In this document: piece after piece, positions 1 to 7,531 of the stretch
How positions within the stretch are numbered: position 1 is the first letter of the stretch
Layout: every line of letters begins with the position of its first letter
From: a virus
Lineage: Duplodnaviria; Heunggongvirae; Uroviricota; Caudoviricetes
IMG/VR virus record: IMGVR_UViG_2529292715_000018
Length of the DNA stretch: 7,531 nucleotides
Direction: 5' to 3' (one strand)
Notes under the pieces: model-generated
Database searches by the model: none
What the model saw: the letters and a program-made list of their open reading frames with translations, nothing else
Told to the model about the DNA's origin: nothing
Translations under genes and position numbers: made by a program

Positions 1-303
1 TTAACGCGTATTTTTCAGCGACTCCTGTGCAAAATACGCTGTTGCTTTTTTTAATATATCTCGCTCAAGGCGAGCTTCATTTAACGCCTTACGCAGCTGC
101 AGAATTTCAGATTCCAGTTCAGCCAGCGTGCGGGAACCAGGAGTACCGAGCCCTTTTCTGGCGGCGGTAACCCATTGTCCTAAAGTGCCTTCAGGAAGAG
201 ATAATCGGGAAGCGCCTTCACTGATCGAAAGTTGATTTTCAAGAACCGTTCTGACAGCTTCGGCTTTGAACTCTTTAGAGTAACGTTGGGTTTTTCTGCT
301 CAT
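1..303 (-). CDS. IS3-family transposase OrfA (IS600-like), 100 aa, HTH plus leucine-zipper
   Basis: ORF MSRKTQRYSKEFKAEAVRTVLENQLSISEGASRLS...LQLRKALNEARLERDILKKATAYF, typical IS3-family OrfA architecture. Strong SD (AGAAGGAG) 7 nt upstream of ATG on minus strand. Stop codon at 1-3. Confidence 0.85.
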   Translation of the reverse strand: MSRKTQRYSKEFKAEAVRTVLENQLSISEGASRLSLPEGTLGQWVTAARKGLGTPGSRTLAELESEILQLRKALNEARLERDILKKATAYFAQESLKNTR

Positions 304-367
304 TATTAGCTCCTTCTGATGCCATTCTATTTCAGGAAGGAGCGTCCGTTAAACTCAGGCTACCTCA
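1..367 (-). mobile_element. IS3-family insertion sequence, IS600-like, partial (one terminus at ~367; element continues beyond window start)
   Basis: Complete OrfA on minus strand (1-303). The reverse complement of 345-367 reads TGAGGTAGCCTGAGTTTAACGG, a TG-initiated IS3-family terminus. OrfB would lie left of the window. IS600 assignment is from memory of the OrfA sequence, not a search. Confidence 0.7.
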
Positions 368-714
368 CTTATTCTAAGCAACCGGGTAGCATCATACGGG
401 GCAATTATGGCCGCATTACCATACATGCAACTGTACATAGCTGATTATCTGGCTGACACCATGCATTTGTCAGCAGAGGAGCACGGCGCGTATTTGTTGC
501 TGATGTTCAATTACTGGCAAACAGGAAAGCCAATACCCAAAAACAGGTTGGCAAAAATTGCCCGTCTGACTAACGAGCGATGGGTTGATGTTGAACCATC
601 CTTGCGGGAGTTTTTTTGTGATAACGGCGACGAATGGATGCATCTTCGGATTGAGGAAGATCTGGCATCTGTCAGAGAAAAATTAACCAAAAAATCAGCC
701 GCAGGAAAAGCATC

Positions 715-813
715 TGTTCAGGCCAGAAGAAGCAGAAAGGAAGCAGATGTTCAAACAAAACAAGAGAGAAATTTAACAGGTGTTCAAACAGATGTTGGAG
801 TGGTGTTCGAACA
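715..813. repeat. Iteron-like repeats (TGTTCA core; TGTTCAAACA x2, palindromic TGTTCGAACA x1), putative phage origin
   Basis: TGTTCA at 715, 749, 781 and TGTTCG at 804, spaced 34/32/23 bp, inside the initiator coding sequence immediately upstream of the IS2 insertion point. Confidence 0.4.
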
Positions 814-814
814 T

Positions 815-819
815 GATGC
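815..819. repeat. IS2 target-site duplication, left copy (GATGC)
   Basis: GATGC directly abuts the IS2 terminus at 820 and recurs at 2073-2077 directly after the other terminus. IS2 is known to make 5-bp duplications. Confidence 0.8.
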
Positions 820-830
820 TGGATTTGCCC

Positions 831-1655
831 CTATATTTCCAGACATCTGTTATCACTTAACCCATTACAAGCCCGCTGCCGCAGATATTCCCGTGGCGAG
901 CGATAACCCAGCGCACTATGCGGATGCCATTCGTTATAATGCTCGAACGCCTCTGCAAGGTTCTTTGCTGCCGTTAACCCGTCTGGTTTGGGCATGATAC
1001 TGATGTAGTCACGCTTTATCGTTTTCACGAAGCTCTCTGCTATTCCGTTACTCTCCGGACTCCGCACCGCCGTGTTCTTCGGTTCAAGTCCCAACATCCG
1101 GGCGAACTGGCGTGTTTCATTAGCCCGGTAGCATGAACCATTATCCGTCAGCCACTCCACTGGAGACGACGGAAGATCGTTGCCGAAGCGGCGTTCCACC
1201 GCTCCCAGCATGACGTCCTGTACTGTTTCACTGTTGAAGCCGCCGGTAGTCACCGCCCAGTGCAGTGCCTCACGATCACAGCAGTCCAGCGCGAACGTGA
1301 CACGCAGTCTCTCTCCGTTATCACAGCAGAACTCGAACCCGTCAGAGCACCATCGCTGATTGCTTTCTTTCACGGCCACTCTGCCTGTATGTGCCCGTTT
1401 CGATGGCGGTACAGCAGGTTTTCGCTCAAGCAACAGCGCATTCTGGCGCATGATCCGGTAAACACGTTTGGCATTGATCGCAGGCATACCATCAAGTTCT
1501 GCCTGTCTGCGAAGCAGCGCCCATACCCGACGATAACCATACGTGGGCAGCTCTCCGATAACATGGTGTATACGGAGAAGCACATCCGTATCATCAGTGT
1601 GACGACTGCGGCGGCCATCCATCCAGTCATCGGTTCGTCTGAGAATGACGTGCAA
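831..1655 (-). CDS. insD: IS2 transposase InsD (OrfB) catalytic region, N-terminally truncated (begins at [11 protein letters not shown]; no ATG)
   Basis: Translation [18 protein letters not shown]...[34 protein letters not shown] matches InsD from about residue 27 onward. The reported M is a TTG codon. An in-frame TGA lies 10 codons upstream. Confidence 0.85.
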
Positions 1656-1981
1656 CTGCGCACGCGACCCCCGGATTCAACGGCTTCTTTGAGGAGTTCA
1701 TTTTCCATCGTTTTCTTGCCGAGCAGGCGCTGGAGTTCTTTAATCTGCTTCATGGCGGCAGCAAGTTCAGAGGCAGGAACAACCTGTTCTCCGGCGGCCA
1801 CAGCAGTAAGACTTCCTTCCTGGTATTGCTTACGCCAGAGAAATAACTGGCTGGCTGCTACACCATGTTGCCGGGCAACGAGGGAGACCGTCATCCCCGG
1901 TTCAAAGCTCTGCTGAACAATTGCGATCTTTTCCTGTGTGGTACGCCGTCTGCGTTTCTCCGGCCCTAAGACATCAATCAT
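1370..1981 (-). CDS. insC: IS2 InsC (OrfA) with aberrant C-terminal extension; native C-terminus and frameshift window deleted
   Basis: [40 protein letters not shown]...[14 protein letters not shown] matches InsC. After EAVE the frame runs on out of frame through the InsD region to a stop at 1370, instead of ending after about 121 aa. Confidence 0.8.
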
Positions 1982-2072
1982 CTGTTCTCCAATGACTAGT
2001 CTAAAAACTAGTATTAAGGCTATCACTTAAATAAGTGATACTGGTTGTCTGGAGATTCAGGGGGCCAGTCTA

Positions 2073-2077
2073 GATGC
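2073..2077. repeat. IS2 target-site duplication, right copy (GATGC)
   Basis: Identical pentamer flanking the opposite IS2 terminus. Confidence 0.8.
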
Positions 2078-2813
2078 CAACACAAAGGCAACTAATAAAG
2101 ATACAGATAAAGATCTAAAAACAGATCTAACCCATCCCAAACCCTTCCCTTCCGGAAGGGAGTTTCGGGATTTTGTGGCTGGAGTGCTTGAGGGGAGATT
2201 ATCTGGCGGTACTGCAGCGGAATTTTGTAATTCTGCGGTGGTTGCGTTGCAGGCTGCTGGCCTGGATGTCTGTCGTGAGTATCCGGTGCCAGAGCGTGGT
2301 GACGGTTGCGGAGGGCGGATTGATATCGTCGTGACTGACAGGAACGGTGTCCGGTGTGGGATCGAGCTTGACCGAAATTCTCCGCGACAGAAATCACTGC
2401 TCAAAATCGGTGCTGTTGAAACCGGGATATGTGTCTTGCGGCGCAGTGATATCGCAAGGCACACCGAGCAGGGAATTCTGGTTATCGGTGGGGCTGTTCG
2501 CCAGAAAAAATTTGACCCGTTGTCAGTTGATCTGCCCGACTGGTTGCCAGATACACTCTGGCATGAGTGGGTCCAGTTCAGGCAGGCATTGCGAAAACCG
2601 ATTCGAACGGAGCTGGGCGCTAACGGGGCGATACGGGAACTGGAAAAATTCCGTCAGCAGGGTTTTACACCTGAGCAGGTGATTCGACACAGCATCGCCA
2701 ATGAATACCAGGGTCTGTTCGCGCCGAAAGGTGTTCGGCCTGAGACGTTGCTCCGACAGGTTAACACCGTCTCGTTGCCGGACAGTGCGATCCCGCCAGG
2801 CTTCAGGGGGTAA
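2078..2813 (+). pseudogene. Phage replication initiator, C-terminal fragment (continues 407-819 in frame once IS2 and one GATGC copy are removed)
   Basis: Frame is open from 2079 with no stop. Removing 820-2077 joins it in frame to 407-819, giving a 382-aa ORF. Stop TAA at 2811-2813 lies 6 nt before the DnaC-like start. Confidence 0.7.
2079..2135. other. A-rich tract with short repeats (AAAGAT / ACAGAT), candidate DNA-unwinding element of the putative origin
   Basis: Sequence aacacaaaggcaactaataaagatacagataaagatctaaaaacagatctaac lies directly downstream of the iteron-like repeats in the pre-insertion arrangement. Confidence 0.3.
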
Positions 2814-2819
2814 CAGACC

Positions 2820-3566
2820 ATGAAAAATATTGCGACAGGAGGCGTTCTGGAGCGTATCCGCAGACTGACCCCACCACATGTAACCGCCCCATTCAGAACG
2901 GTTGCGGAGTGGCGCGAGTGGCAACTTGCTGAAGGCCAGAAACGTTGCGAGGAGATCAACCGCCTGAATCGTCAGTTGCGGGTGGAAAAAATTCTGAACC
3001 GCTCCGGCATCCAGCCGTTGCACCGGAAGTGTTCGTTTGCGAATTACCGGGCGCAGAACGACGGTCAGCGACATGCACTGAGTCAGGCGAAATCCATAGC
3101 TGACGAACTGATGACAGGCTGTACGAATTTTGTGTTCAGCGGTAAGCCCGGCACCGGAAAAAATCATCTTGCAGCCGCGATTGGCAACCGGCTGATGGCG
3201 AAGGGGCGTAGCGTGATTATCGTCACCGTGTCCGATGTCATGAGCGTGTTGCATGAGAGCTACGACAACGGCAAATCCGGTGAAAAATTTTTACAGGAGC
3301 TTTGTGGTGTTGACCTGCTGGTCCTGGATGAAATTGGCATGCAGCGGGATACGAAAAACGAGCAGGTGGTACTGAACCAGATTGTTGATCGCCGGACGGC
3401 ATCGTTACGCGGTGTGGGGATGCTGACAAATATTAACCATGCAGCGATGAATACACTTCTCGGCGAGCGGGTGATGGATCGCATGGTCATGAACGGCGGG
3501 CGCTGGGTGAATTTTAACTGGGAGAGCTGGCGTCCGAATGTTAGCCATTCGAGGGTTGTTAAGTAG
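2820..3566 (+). CDS. DnaC-like helicase loader / phage replication protein (AAA+ ATPase, IstB/DnaC family)
   Basis: Walker A FSGKPGTGKNHLAAAIG and Walker B DLLVLDEIG. SD AGGGGG upstream. Sits immediately downstream of the initiator gene, the usual phage O/P-like pairing. Confidence 0.9.
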   Translation: MKNIATGGVLERIRRLTPPHVTAPFRTVAEWREWQLAEGQKRCEEINRLNRQLRVEKILNRSGIQPLHRKCSFANYRAQNDGQRHALSQAKSIADELMTGCTNFVFSGKPGTGKNHLAAAIGNRLMAKGRSVIIVTVSDVMSVLHESYDNGKSGEKFLQELCGVDLLVLDEIGMQRDTKNEQVVLNQIVDRRTASLRGVGMLTNINHAAMNTLLGERVMDRMVMNGGRWVNFNWESWRPNVSHSRVVK

Positions 3567-3580
3567 TTTCAGGAGGATTT

Positions 3581-4003
3581 ATGGCGAAACCTTTTACTCC
3601 CGAACAGCGGGAAGAACTGAAGACGCGAATTGTGGAACTCGTGCATCAGGACGGTCGGGTCACGATTCGGCAGTTGTCAGATGAAACAGGTATCAGTCGT
3701 GCGTCTGTCGGTCGCTTATGCATGGAACTGGTCGCAAGTGGTGATGTATATAATTCTGGCTACGGGGTATTTCCCTCTGAACAGGCTCATAAAGACTGGC
3801 AAAACGCCCGCAAAAAGCTATCGAGGGTAAAGGTGAAGAAACCGGTTGTGGTTGATCCTGACCTTATCTGGTCATTACCAGACGGAGAAATACGCCGCTA
3901 CGACAGGCGCCTGAATATAATCTGTCGCGAGTGCCGGAAGAGCGAAGCTATGCAGCGCGTGCTGGCGTTTTATCAGGGGAAATTTCAGGAGGCGGTACTG
4001 TGA
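3581..4003 (+). CDS. Ren-like protein (winged-HTH N-terminus; C-terminus resembles lambda Ren)
   Basis: Strong SD (CAGGAGG) 6 nt upstream. C-terminal ICRECRKSEAMQRVLAFYQGK resembles lambda Ren VFKECRQSAAMKRVLAVYGVK as recalled. Position directly after the P-like gene matches lambda ren. Confidence 0.75.
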   Translation: MAKPFTPEQREELKTRIVELVHQDGRVTIRQLSDETGISRASVGRLCMELVASGDVYNSGYGVFPSEQAHKDWQNARKKLSRVKVKKPVVVDPDLIWSLPDGEIRRYDRRLNIICRECRKSEAMQRVLAFYQGKFQEAVL

Positions 4004-4060
4004 GTAAAATTAGCTATCAGGCTTCAATTACCGCTGGTATTCGCATCAAAGGAGAGGAGC

Positions 4061-4417
4061 ATGGAAATAAAACCAGAAGATGAGTTAAGCAATATCGTTT
4101 TATTTCCGGTAAAAGAGGATGACCCACGTAATCAGGTTAATTTTCTTTATGAACCATCGGAAAGACCATATTGCCATCACGCCTCTGTCCGGGTTGACGA
4201 AAAAGAGCGTCAGGTCCGCTGTAAAATCTGCGGTGCGGTTGTGGAGCCGTTTGACTGGATGCTCTCTGTGGCAAAAAGAGAAACCAGACTGGCAGATGAT
4301 GTAAGGCTATTGCGCCAGGAGGAACAGGAAAGGCGGAGAAATATAGAAAAGCTGATACAGATTGAGCGTAACGCGAAAGCGCGGATACGCAGGGCGACAA
4401 AATCCAGAACTGAATAA
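4061..4417 (+). CDS. Hypothetical phage protein, putative zinc-ribbon (CHH...CxxC) with basic coiled-coil C-terminus
   Basis: SD AAAGGAGAGGAG upstream of ATG. Motif YCHHASVRVDEKERQVRCKICGAV. C-terminal region rich in R/E/Q. No family recognised. Confidence 0.7.
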   Translation: MEIKPEDELSNIVLFPVKEDDPRNQVNFLYEPSERPYCHHASVRVDEKERQVRCKICGAVVEPFDWMLSVAKRETRLADDVRLLRQEEQERRRNIEKLIQIERNAKARIRRATKSRTE

Positions 4418-4509
4418 TTAAATTTAGCACTGTTAAAAATTTAATCCTTAACCGGAGGGATTTCTGCACCCTCAAATCATCAGGAGACCGCCCGAAAGGG
4501 CGGTAATGA

Positions 4510-4728
4510 ATGGTTACATTATTTAGAAAAAAATATCCGCGAAAGAGTAGAACAACAGAATTCCTGTTTCTCATTCTGTTTATCGTGTTGATGACACCGA
4601 TATCCCCGCTAATTTTTGTCTGGATAATCGGAAAAATAATTGAGCCAGTTATTGAATTGTATAACGACGTGGTATGGGCGTCATTCAACACACTGCACAA
4701 TAAAATTAATCCGTATAAGGAAAGCTGA
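4510..4728 (+). CDS. Putative small membrane protein (72 aa, one predicted TM helix) in an AT-rich islet
   Basis: Basic N-terminus (RKKYPRKSR) followed by hydrophobic FLFLILFIVLMTPISPLIFVWIIGKII. Local GC clearly lower than flanks. Putative SD AAGGG sits inside a hairpin. Could be a non-coding spacer instead. Confidence 0.4.
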   Translation: MVTLFRKKYPRKSRTTEFLFLILFIVLMTPISPLIFVWIIGKIIEPVIELYNDVVWASFNTLHNKINPYKES

Positions 4729-4729
4729 T

Positions 4730-5164
4730 ATGGCACTGACGAAAAAACAACGTGCAGAACTGCGCATGAAGTTCGGTGGTCGCTGCGCTTATTGCGGCTG
4801 CGAACTTGGCGAAAAGTGGCATGCAGACCATGTAAAACCGGTCATTCGTTTTGATGGAAATATGCTTCACCAGGAACGTGACGATATATCCAACATGGTA
4901 CCAGAATGCCACCCATGCAATCTGCACAAGCATTGCAGTAGCCTAGAAGATTATCGACGAATTATCAGTGATGGTCGTCGTGAATTCCTTGCGTCCGGGA
5001 AAGGCAAAGCGCTGGTTCGTATGGGATTGGTTGAAATGAAATCTGACCCGGTTGTGTTCTGGTTTGAAAAATATCAAGAAGGGGCTACGGCATGGCCACT
5101 ATTACCAAAGAGCGACTGCAATGGCTGGCTAACATTTCTGGCCGCGATGATATTGACGATATAG
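4730..5164 (+). CDS. HNH endonuclease
   Basis: Motifs CAYCGCEL, HADHVKPV and PECHPCNLHK fit the HNH pattern. SD AAGGAAA upstream of ATG at 4730; the ORF track start at 4640 is probably an over-extension. The 3' end overlaps the next gene by 73 nt in another frame. Confidence 0.85.
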   Translation: MALTKKQRAELRMKFGGRCAYCGCELGEKWHADHVKPVIRFDGNMLHQERDDISNMVPECHPCNLHKHCSSLEDYRRIISDGRREFLASGKGKALVRMGLVEMKSDPVVFWFEKYQEGATAWPLLPKSDCNGWLTFLAAMILTI

Positions 5165-5757
5165 ACGGCGGTGAAATTCGTGAACTGGCGCTTATCGCTC
5201 TGGCATCACTGGAAGCAGAGCCTGTAGCGGAATGCATTGTTGAAGATGGGGGCATGTGTATTGACGGGTTCGGTGAGTATGTGGGTCACTCGCTGCCTGA
5301 TGGAATGCATGAGCTTTATGCTGCCCCGCGAATGCGACAACCTGATGGATGGAAAGCCGTAGCTGTAGCGTGGAAGGTGACGTTTACTCAAGTTGACCAG
5401 GAATCTAATACGTTCACTGCTATATATTTTGACAAAGCGGAAGTTGAGCGTTGGGTACGACTGCATAAAGCATGTGATTTTCGGGCAGATATAACACCGC
5501 TTTACGCAGCGCCGGCAGTGCCGGTTGCAGTAAACGACGACATGGCTTACGCATTCCATCACGCACTGTCAGATTCATCGCTTGGCTCTGGTGAAATCGA
5601 AGAAATTAAAACCGGTTTGCGTGCTGCCTTTGCCAACGTCACTATCCAACCAGAGCCGATAGTGCCGGATGAAATCGGGCCAAACGATAGTAATACGTTT
5701 GATTATGTTGATGGCTGGAACGCCTGCCGCGCTGCCATGCTTAAGGGAGATAAATAA
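5092..5757 (+). CDS. Hypothetical phage accessory protein (221 aa), acidic N-terminus, internal LYAAP repeat
   Basis: SD AAGAAGGGG 7 nt upstream of ATG. Stop overlaps the start of the next gene (TAATG). No confident family assignment. Confidence 0.7.
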   Translation: MATITKERLQWLANISGRDDIDDIDGGEIRELALIALASLEAEPVAECIVEDGGMCIDGFGEYVGHSLPDGMHELYAAPRMRQPDGWKAVAVAWKVTFTQVDQESNTFTAIYFDKAEVERWVRLHKACDFRADITPLYAAPAVPVAVNDDMAYAFHHALSDSSLGSGEIEEIKTGLRAAFANVTIQPEPIVPDEIGPNDSNTFDYVDGWNACRAAMLKGDK

Positions 5758-6122
5758 TGATTAATCGAACCAAACTGGAGCACATTCTCGAATATGCCAG
5801 GCAGCAGAAATGTATTGGGCAACTTTGTAAAATTCCACCAGGAGATATGGTTGAAATCGTGGAAATGGCCATGCGTAAGGCTGGCAACTCTCCGGTAACT
5901 CTGGCTGGCTGGATAAGCTGTAGTGATGCAGTTCCTGCTGAATATTGCGATGTGATTCTTCTCGATGATCTCGGGAATGTATTCCCCGGTTCCTGGGATA
6001 AGGTTTTTTGCCCCACTCGTGGCGGGAATAAGATGGCTTTTGTGGACAAAGACGGCGTTGAAGTAGAGAGCTCAACTCACTGGATGCCGCTACCGGAACC
6101 ACCGCAGGAGGTGAATCAATGA
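5757..6122 (+). CDS. DUF551-domain phage protein
   Basis: C-terminal THWMPLPEPP and GWISCSDAVPAEYCDVILL match the DUF551 pattern as recalled. Translationally coupled to the upstream gene. Confidence 0.8.
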   Translation: MINRTKLEHILEYARQQKCIGQLCKIPPGDMVEIVEMAMRKAGNSPVTLAGWISCSDAVPAEYCDVILLDDLGNVFPGSWDKVFCPTRGGNKMAFVDKDGVEVESSTHWMPLPEPPQEVNQ

Positions 6123-6202
6123 CCTGGCCTGAGGCATTCACCACGGTAGGAATTGCGATGGCGGTGGCGCTGGTGGTGTATTCGATTTGCCGTTGGGGTT
6201 AA
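6119..6202 (+). CDS. Small hydrophobic peptide (27 aa, MTWPEAFTTVGIAMAVALVVYSICRWG), putative single-TM membrane peptide
   Basis: ATG overlaps the upstream stop (ATGA). Strong SD AGGAGG 8 nt upstream. Followed within 10 nt by an intrinsic terminator. Below the ORF-track length cutoff. Confidence 0.4.
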   Translation: MTWPEAFTTVGIAMAVALVVYSICRWG

Positions 6203-6209
6203 CAAACAA

Positions 6210-6240
6210 AAACCCCGGATTGATGGTCCGGGGTTTTTGA
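6210..6240 (+). terminator. Rho-independent terminator
   Basis: Hairpin AACCCCGGA...TCCGGGGTT followed by TTTTT. Confidence 0.75.
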
Positions 6241-6408
6241 AGGAAACAAAACAGAAACAGCAATTGCCGTTACCTGTTGTTACCATGGCAAGTAAACGTA
6301 TCTCAGGCGAGCGCATTGCGCCGTTCTGACGCAGATAAATTAGCCTGGATAGAAGGTGCTGGCAATAAAAAATAGCGTTTTCTTATCGGTATCGGTAAGA
6401 TTGCTGCG

Positions 6409-6420
6409 GGTGCTTGAGGC
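6409..6420 (+). promoter_or_regulatory. Putative 5' end of hok mRNA (tac-like element GGTGCTTGAGGC)
   Basis: Resembles the 5' end of plasmid R1 hok mRNA (GGCGCUUGAGGC) as recalled. Complementary to a 3' element at 6782-6793. A possible -10 (TAAGAT) lies at 6396-6401. Confidence 0.5.
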
Positions 6421-6454
6421 TGTCTGCCTCGGGCATGCCACTGTAAGGCAGACA

Positions 6455-6550
6455 GAGAAAAGCCCCAGTTAACATTACGCGTCCTGCAAGACGCTTAACA
6501 TTAATCTGAGGCCCAATCTATGTCTCACAAATGTAGGTTAGCCTCTTACG
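6455..6550 (-). ncRNA. Sok-like antisense RNA, putative; boundaries approximate
   Basis: By analogy with hok/sok loci the antisense RNA is encoded opposite the mok start and leader. An inverted repeat GCGTC...GACGC (6479-6494) and a T-rich stretch on the minus strand could form its 3' end. Promoter not confidently identified. Confidence 0.35.
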
Positions 6551-6732
6551 TGCCGAAAGGCAAGGAGAAGCAGGCTATGAAGCAGCAAAAGGCGATGTTA
6601 ATCGCCCTGATCGTCATCTGTTTAACCGTCATAGTGACGGCACTGGTAACGAGGAAAGACCTCTGCGAGGTACGAATCCGAACCGGCCAGACGGAGGTCG
6701 CTGTCTTCACAGCTTACGAACCTGAGGAGTAA
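6520..6732 (+). CDS. Mok-like reading frame (70 aa) containing hok in frame
   Basis: ATG at 6520 opens a frame running into and through hok, the arrangement recalled for chromosomal mokC/hokC. Confidence 0.55.
   Translation: MSHKCRLASYVPKGKEKQAMKQQKAMLIALIVICLTVIVTALVTRKDLCEVRIRTGQTEVAVFTAYEPEE
6577..6732 (+). CDS. hokD: Hok/Gef-family type I toxin (51 aa), HokD/RelF-like
   Basis: MKQQKAMLIALIVICLTVIVTALVTRKDLCEVRIRTGQTEVAVFTAYEPEE: single TM helix plus conserved RKxLCE...GQTEVA motif. Matches HokD (RelF) as recalled from memory. SD AAGGAG upstream. Confidence 0.85.
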   Translation: MKQQKAMLIALIVICLTVIVTALVTRKDLCEVRIRTGQTEVAVFTAYEPEE

Positions 6733-6781
6733 GAGACCAGGCGGGGGAGAAATCCCTCGCCACCTCTCATGTGTCAGGCAT

Positions 6782-6793
6782 CCTCAACGCACC
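6782..6793 (+). promoter_or_regulatory. fbi-like 3' element of hok mRNA (CCTCAACGCACC)
   Basis: Reverse complement GGTGCGTTGAGG pairs with 6409-6419 with a single-nucleotide bulge. Confidence 0.5.
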
Positions 6794-6799
6794 CGCACT

Positions 6800-6823
6800 A
6801 AACCCGCTTCGGCGGGTTTTTTG
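6800..6823 (+). terminator. Rho-independent terminator of hok transcript
   Basis: Hairpin AACCCGC-TTCG-GCGGGTT followed by TTTTTT. Confidence 0.75.
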
Positions 6824-7007
6824 TTGCGTGCTGAATACGCAGGGTGAAAAATAACCATATATTTGATTATATACACAACAAAAAATAAAAGTCATTGTAC
6901 TTGCACATTAAACAATCAAATATACGGCGTGAAATAAATATTTTTCAGATTAATATTTTTGTCTCTATGTGGATATAACCGTTTGTACTTATAAACCTGG
7001 AGGCATC

Positions 7008-7220
7008 GTGGAGAAAATAAAGAAACTATTTAGTAGCAAATACGCAGTCATACGTCGTGATGACCTGTCAGTTATAGTCGAAATGGATTACTTCCCTGAA
7101 ACCCCAAAATCAATAATGTATCGTAATGGTCGAAAGGCAATTTTTTTACCGATGAGGGTAAGTGACATTATGGGAAATGATAAACTGCTGGATGAATTGC
7201 GAGTCAGAGCATCCTGTTAG
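7008..7220 (+). CDS. Hypothetical small protein (70 aa from GTG 7008; 83 aa if GTG 6969 is used)
   Basis: SD GGAGG 4 nt before GTG at 7008. Preceded by an AT-rich promoter-like region (6840-6990). Stop at 7218-7220, 2 nt before the IS1 terminus. Function unknown. Confidence 0.45.
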   Translation: MEKIKKLFSSKYAVIRRDDLSVIVEMDYFPETPKSIMYRNGRKAIFLPMRVSDIMGNDKLLDELRVRASC

Positions 7221-7222
7221 TA

Positions 7223-7531
7223 GGTAATGACTCCAACTTACTGATAGTGTTTTATGTTCAGATAATGCCCGATGACCTTGTCATGCAGCTCCACCGATTT
7301 TGAGAACGACAGTGACTTCCGTCCCAGCCTTGCCAGATGTTGTCTCAGATTCAGATTATGTCGCTCAATGCGCTGAGTGTAACGCTTGCTGATAACGTGC
7401 AGCTTTCCCTTCAGGCGTGATTCATACAGCGGCCAGCCATCCGTCATCCATACCATGACCTCAAAGGCCGACAGCAGGCTCAGAAGACGCTCCAGTGTGG
7501 CCAGAGTGCGTTCACCGAAGACGTGCGCCAC
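7223..7531 (-). mobile_element. IS1 element, partial (terminus at 7223; continues beyond window end)
   Basis: Terminus GGTAATGACTCCAACTTACTGATAGTGTTTTATGTTCAGATAATGCCCGATGAC matches the IS1 inverted repeat as recalled. InsB C-terminus is encoded on the minus strand. Confidence 0.9.
7238..7531 (-). CDS. insB: IS1 transposase InsB, C-terminal part (partial at window edge)
   Basis: [94 protein letters not shown] matches InsB with a few substitutions relative to the K-12 isoform as recalled. Confidence 0.9.

Follow-up and report, generated by a model that had tools for sequence, protein, structure and literature searches.

The window analysed here, a stretch of 7,531 nucleotides, is a multiply hit Rac-like prophage remnant of Shigella flexneri in which a ydaU-family gene, the putative replication initiator gene of the prophage, is interrupted by IS2. 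We consider it very probable that the interruption arose by a plain insertion of IS2 into a formerly intact gene. The features on which the following account draws are listed below, in the order of their positions in the window.

1-367, minus strand: end of an IS600 with orfA at 1-303, recognised by the HTH_Tnp_1 match of a 100-aa ORF; the boundary with prophage DNA lies at 367/368.
407-819, plus strand: 5′ part of the ydaU-family gene (codons 1-137 and 2 nt), encoding the DUF1376 domain (PF07120) and the linker.
747-757, 780-790 and 803-813, no strand: three palindromic iteron-like repeats, TGTTCRAACA, inside the gene, from a motif scan.
815-819, no strand: left copy of the target-site duplication GATGC, from a repeat scan and comparison with the empty site.
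820-2072, transposase genes on the minus strand: IS2 with a 78-bp internal deletion, 1253 bp, from alignment to IS2.
831-1655, minus strand: insD remnant (DDE/rve domain), with rve, rve_3 and HTH_21 matches.
1370-1981, minus strand: N-terminal part of insC, running out of frame into the insD region as an aberrant 203-aa ORF, with an HTH_Tnp_1 match over residues 8-87 only.
1674-1675, no strand: junction of the 78-bp deletion (IS2 alignment columns 856-933), from alignment to IS2 and to a sister locus.
2073-2077, no strand: right copy of the target-site duplication GATGC, from a repeat scan.
2078-2813, plus strand: 3′ part of the ydaU-family gene (1 nt, codons 139-382 and stop), from alignments.
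2078-2137, no strand: AT-rich block (67% AT) directly after the insertion site, a candidate unwinding element, from comparison of E. coli and Salmonella DNA.
2127-2498, plus strand: in-frame 124-aa domain of predicted PD-(D/E)xK nuclease fold (residues 155-278 of the rebuilt protein), not in K-12-type YdaU.
2499-2810, plus strand: C-terminal domain like those of DnaT/lambda-O-like initiators (PDB 2ru8, phrog_678).
2820-3566, plus strand: ydaV, an intact DnaC-like AAA+ helicase-loader gene starting 6 nt past the ydaU stop (IstB_IS21, Bac_DnaA, PRK12377).

The sequence-only reading had named the element IS2 and had pointed to a perfect GATGC repeat at its two ends, lying in target DNA rather than in the element, and all of this was borne out. 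Assignment to IS2 was made at a threshold of at least 95% nucleotide identity to the reference over the full length. Positions 820-2072 match thousands of E. coli loci annotated 'IS3-like element IS2 family transposase' end to end at 99.5% identity, in two alignment pieces that span the whole query. The termini, TGGATTTGCCCC at the start and GGGGGCCAGTCTA at the end, are identical to those of the reference copy, and the imperfect terminal inverted repeats are both intact (arms 828-859 and 2032-2063, 78% complementary). Since the ends of the element match the reference termini exactly, the GATGC pentamers at 815-819 and 2073-2077 lie outside IS2, in the flanking DNA. They measure exactly 5 bp, with no extension on either side. 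A matching flanking pentamer would arise by chance with a probability of about 1/1024, the boundaries being fixed independently by the IS2 alignment. The copy in the window is like other copies of IS2 (IS3 family, IS2 group, from E. coli and Shigella) in its termini, its imperfect inverted repeats, its 5-bp target duplication and its HTH_Tnp_1 and rve (DDE) domains. However, it is 1253 bp long instead of the canonical 1331 bp, and it is without the insC/insD overlap and the A6G frameshift site.

Removal of IS2 together with one copy of the repeat had been expected to restore a 382-aa reading frame. Indeed, joining 407-819 to 2078-2813 in silico yields 1149 nt (0 mod 3) that encode 382 aa with a terminal stop only. 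A search of 5,426 complete E. coli genomes with this excised gene found it uninterrupted and in one piece, at 99.6-99.7% identity, in two of them, FDAARGOS_944 and VL40. Both carry the predicted empty site, which reads ...GAACATGATGCCAACAC... with a single GATGC, and in both the ORF is open, differing from the rebuilt gene by 4 or 5 nt and by 3 or 4 aa. Given that the empty sites hold one copy of the pentamer, the repeat in the window is a target-site duplication. Homology to the two genomes extends over 368-7222 of the window, except for extra segments of their own (a copy of ISEc52 in FDAARGOS_944 and additional genes in VL40). In addition, the rebuilt protein is colinear across the insertion point with intact DUF1376/YdaU proteins. 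It aligns with K-12-type YdaU (285 aa) at 92% identity outside a 124-aa insert, without a break at the IS2 target (...VVFEHDANTKATNKDTDK...); for an intact Salmonella 'YdaU family protein' of 392 aa, aligned over its length with the insert included, the identity is 72%. Empty site, colinearity and restored ORF all argue for a simple insertion into an intact gene, as the sequence-only reading had proposed.

That reading had also called the insertion relatively recent, a description that needs to be qualified by its distribution. The filled junction (window 720-920) is present in none of the 5,426 complete E. coli genomes, and the records that do show the filled site all bear the name Shigella flexneri. 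At this site the annotated ORF 407-997 runs 59 codons into IS2, and its 196-aa product consists of 137 YdaU residues followed by 59 read from the element. This chimeric ORF is possible only at the filled site. Its product is found on 25 contigs under the NCBI name Shigella flexneri, and a further 196-aa protein from its 90%-identity cluster is found on 68 more contigs; the remaining members of the cluster are fragments at the ends of contigs, broken off at the IS in short-read assembly. The same insertion occurs in at least eight S. flexneri assemblies, and the eight loci fetched agree in both junctions, in a full 1331-bp IS2 and in their IS600 and IS1 neighbours. Seven of them have an open rebuilt ORF, with 0-3 nt differences; the eighth, in which it is not open, comes from an assembly with many frameshifted genes. 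Since the insertion is common to all S. flexneri strains examined, it is not recent in the sense of being specific to one strain, and 'recent' stands only in the sense that the two halves of the gene are undecayed. Short-read assembly breaks at the IS2 junction that these genomes have in common, and this junction could be used as a marker.

The interrupted gene belongs to a family whose role can be approached through its domains and its neighbours. Its DUF1376 domain scores 87.8 bits against PF07120 (gathering cut-off 30.1) over residues 5-87. The last ~90 residues match the C-terminal domain of DnaT (PDB 2ru8, E 1.6e-4) and phrog_678, 'replication initiation O-like' (2.4e-22); this C-terminal domain is presumed to be the partner of the helicase loader. 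The rebuilt protein also matches PHROG 6451 ('primosomal protein') in two stretches, and NCBIfam returned no family for it or for K-12-type YdaU. The DnaC-like partner downstream had been described as intact, and ydaV is in fact full length, with 506.9 bits against a cut-off of 389 for NCBIfam PRK12377 and a match over positions 1-248 of 248. In intact prophages the ydaU-family gene lies between the repressor/cro/ydaT genes and the DnaC-like gene, directly 5′ of the latter in the early-right operon, and the ydaU-ydaV pair stands where lambda has O and P. In phage records, members of the family go by the name 'DNA replication protein O' or 'primosomal protein I'. A search of the literature on YdaU and DUF1376 turned up no work on the function of YdaU. 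That YdaU proteins are replication initiators is suggested by synteny, by annotation and by the C-terminal domain that they have in common with DnaT and lambda O.

Compared with YdaU and YdaV of the Rac prophage of E. coli K-12, the window has the same DUF1376 domain, linker, C-terminal domain, ydaU-ydaV order and neighbouring prophage genes. In contrast to the K-12 gene, the gene in the window carries an extra 124-aa domain between linker and C-terminal domain, is interrupted by IS2, and appears to be separated from ydaS/ydaT by IS600. The resemblance to the lambda O/P module is one of plan: in both, a two-part initiator, with a DNA-binding N-terminal and a loader-recruiting C-terminal part, is followed by a helicase-loader gene. 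However, the N-terminal domain is DUF1376 here and not Phage_rep_O, and the loader is DnaC-like and not lambda P. The insertion parts the DUF1376 domain, retained in the 196-aa chimeric ORF, from the middle and C-terminal domains. With the domains of the initiator split by IS2, a complete initiator cannot be made, and the replication function of the prophage has presumably been lost.

The extra middle domain has a confident predicted structure (pLDDT 88.9) with the alpha-beta core of the PD-(D/E)xK, restriction-endonuclease-like fold. It matches phrog_1347. In the window protein the domain has no match in Pfam, and among its relatives there are weak matches to the Pfam families MTES_1575, Mrr_cat, BamHI, Hjc and NucS_C (best E 3e-5). 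The domain recurs in 296 representative clusters of a library of 1.84 billion proteins, either within a longer protein or standing alone at ~100-140 aa. Among 52 relatives E234, D236, R241, S244 and K247 (rebuilt-protein numbering) are invariant and D220 is nearly so; D220, E234, D236 and K247 might be the catalytic acidic residues and lysine of the fold. The module formed by the middle and C-terminal domains is joined to three types of N-terminal domain: DUF1376, a phrog_2509 type (376-aa proteins on hundreds of E. coli and Salmonella contigs) and Phage_rep_O (424-426 aa, for example in Leclercia). In all three initiator families the middle domain always lies just 3′ of the linker that bears the candidate iterons. 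What sets it apart from the BamHI, Mrr and AF1548-like PD-(D/E)xK nucleases is that here a minimal predicted domain of ~100 aa sits inside a replication initiator. Tentatively, and going by fold and conserved residues, the domain might be an undescribed functional module of lambdoid initiators, one that could for instance nick or process origin DNA.

Two other histories of the locus have to be weighed against a plain insertion. The two halves of the gene might have been brought together by recombination between two separate copies of IS2, or the match of the pentamers might be mere chance. Shigella genomes are rich in IS-mediated rearrangements, and the IS600 at the left of the window does mark a rearrangement or deletion boundary, with two different left contexts found among the loci. 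However, at the empty sites the two halves are contiguous with exactly one GATGC, which excludes both a chance repeat and the IS-mediated joining of unrelated fragments; moreover, the repeat has the length typical of IS2, and the junctions are identical in all eight S. flexneri loci. We regard this history as refuted, with a negligible probability. It could also be argued that the gene was a pseudogene before IS2 arrived, a K-12-type ydaU broken by ~370 bp of foreign DNA. The segment is missing from K-12-type YdaU, and the long form of the gene, with the middle domain, is found in none of 50,697 phage isolate records. PGAP, too, annotates the gene of the empty-site genomes as two partial YdaU pseudogenes, called 'incomplete' (locus L002, 5950-6462 and 6862-7149). 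This call on an intact gene we attribute to the extra in-frame domain being read as a break, the NCBI pipeline thus splitting an intact 382-aa initiator into two 'pseudogenes' over an inserted domain that it does not recognise. A history of earlier decay is very improbable given that the segment is in frame and without a stop, that it is confidently predicted to adopt the PD-(D/E)xK fold, that its acidic and basic residues are invariant over the 52 relatives, that the domain recurs in the 296 clusters, and that, on hundreds of contigs, it occurs at an unchanged position in initiators whose N-terminal domains are of three types.

Unlike its sister copies, the IS2 in the window is short of 78 bp, in which insC ends, insD begins and the A6G slippery site lies. 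The slippery-site motif (CCACTTTTTTGCC as read on this strand) is present in seven of the eight sister copies and missing here. Given the 1331 bp of its sister copies at this site, the window IS2 is a deletion derivative and not a different element. In IS2 a programmed -1 frameshift joins orfA and orfB to yield the DDE transposase; with the slippery site and the insC/insD overlap lost, the insD remnant cannot be fused to insC, and the copy is unable to make transposase. The copy is non-autonomous; both its ends being intact, it could be mobilised, but only by transposase that another IS2 provides in trans. Among the loci compared, only the window has the deletion, which is likely a strain-specific event. 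Slipped mispairing between two copies of CAACGGCT was considered as its cause and rejected, the junction (CCCGGA joined to TTCAACGG) being a misfit with only 1 nt of microhomology. It is less likely, in our view, that the deletion is a sequencing or assembly artefact and that the true locus carries a full IS2, and we hold this to be rather improbable. Such an artefact would agree with the 1331-bp IS2 of all eight sister loci, with the small distance to the closest locus, GCA_903995685.1 (8 SNPs besides the deletion), and with the database search, in which no identical product was on record for the aberrant 203-aa insC-derived ORF with either of two start choices. However, the junction is clean, the deletion is a single block free of further errors nearby, and against GCA_903995685.1 no indel noise is seen elsewhere in the window.

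Returning to the plain insertion, its course may be pictured as follows. One copy of IS2, an element of the IS3 family, would have transposed into the linker-coding part of an intact ydaU-family gene, and the 5-bp target GATGC would have been duplicated in the process. The event would date to the ancestor common to the S. flexneri strains examined. In the strain of the window, the IS2 copy would subsequently have lost the 78 bp that include the programmed-frameshift site.

The surroundings of the gene have been altered as well. Positions 1-368 match a feature of VL40 annotated 'IS3-like element IS600 family transposase' at 98.9%; homology to prophage DNA starts at 368, and the IS600 boundary lies 38 bp 5′ of the ATG of the ydaU-family gene. 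Beyond IS600, six of the eight S. flexneri loci continue directly with chromosomal genes (a LysR-type regulator, dienelactone-hydrolase-like, tpx-like and pspF-like genes), and no integrase, recombination or repressor genes were called there; the other two continue with late genes from a different prophage. The prophage seems to have had its left half lost or rearranged, and the initiator operon appears to have been cut from ydaS/ydaT, which precede ydaU in intact prophages. At the other side, an IS1 insertion lies at 7223. The prophage was crippled independently of IS2, whose insertion is one among several causes that keep this remnant from acting as a phage. The IS2 event is a case of ordinary IS-driven gene loss, and the same locus is already known, many public S. 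flexneri genomes containing it in annotated form. What is modestly novel, and would concern the field of phage replication if confirmed experimentally, is the nuclease-fold domain in initiators and a candidate origin inside ydaU.

The origin of lambda lies in the linker-coding part of O. A comparable arrangement may exist in the ydaU-family gene, in which dyad-symmetric repeats in linker-coding DNA are likewise followed by an AT-rich stretch, together forming a candidate origin. Matches to TGTTCRAACA with at most one mismatch number 4 against 0.27 expected, and 4 were reached in none of 200 shuffles; at two mismatches, the 7 matches across the window against 4.1 expected are not significant. 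K-12-type ydaU holds four to five copies at a spacing of ~33 bp. The AT-rich block is the GC minimum of the gene and is nearly invariant in DNA between the E. coli and Salmonella genes. As IS2 stands between the candidate iterons and this block, the insertion may have split a putative prophage origin along with the gene. An active origin, oriJ, has been reported for the Rac prophage (PMC3945230), and we found nothing in the literature on oriJ that places it in ydaU. Relatives with a true lambda-O N-terminal domain carry the middle and C-terminal module of the window together with lambda-like iterons in the corresponding place; one of them (L016) has four such iterons, ATCCCTGAAAACAGGGAT, at the same relative position.

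The IS2 copy in the initiator gene (window 820-2072) carries a 78-bp internal deletion, with its junction at window 1674-1675, that has removed the insC/insD overlap together with the A6G frameshift site. A full 1331-bp IS2 occupies the same site in all eight of the S. flexneri sister loci. Directly before the IS2 target lie three palindromic TGTTCRAACA repeats (window 747-813), and directly after it lies a conserved AT block (67% AT, window 2078-2137). By analogy with lambda, the repeats and the AT block form a candidate origin inside the initiator gene. If this origin is real, IS2 would separate the repeats from the AT block.

Within the initiator, an in-frame PD-(D/E)xK nuclease-fold domain of 124 aa is encoded at window 2127-2498, whereas YdaU of the E. 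coli K-12 Rac prophage lacks it. This domain is shared among initiators whose N-terminal domains are of three different kinds, and it is also found as a small stand-alone protein. It is because of the domain inside it that NCBI's pipeline calls the intact initiator gene two pseudogene fragments. The same pipeline places the ydaU start 51 nt upstream (MLFVLILSNRAASYGAI...; window 356-406 versus 5950-6000 in L002, an empty-site E. coli locus), a start lost in the window through the IS600 boundary. Counted from a start at 407, the match to DUF1376 sets in at residue 5, which makes 407 the more plausible true start of ydaU.

At the left edge, an IS600 end (window 1-367) adjoins prophage DNA, and only 38 bp separate this boundary from the ydaU start that lies downstream. 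Beyond IS600, most S. flexneri loci carry chromosomal genes (a ycjZ-like LysR regulator, tpx and pspF), and two carry late genes of another prophage, which indicates that the left half of the prophage was deleted or rearranged via IS600. At the right edge, an IS1 end (window 7223-7531; InsB fragment, DDE_Tnp_IS1) is inserted directly 3' of the stop codon that closes a small hypothetical ORF at 6969-7220; past IS1, the prophage goes on in S. flexneri loci with a DUF1367 gene.

SNPs between two groups of S. flexneri loci are concentrated at window 3679-4189, where the DUF977 gene ends and the ORF after it lies, with about 30 of the 44 differences falling within this 0.5 kb. Such clustering suggests that this tract recombined with another Rac-like prophage. 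Further downstream, a Hok/Gef toxin ORF (window 6520-6732), which includes an overlapping mok-like reading frame, and a plus-strand match to the Rfam 'sok' family (RF01794, window 6408-6582, 118 bits) together look like an intact hok/sok-type toxin-antitoxin locus (6408-6732) in the prophage remnant.
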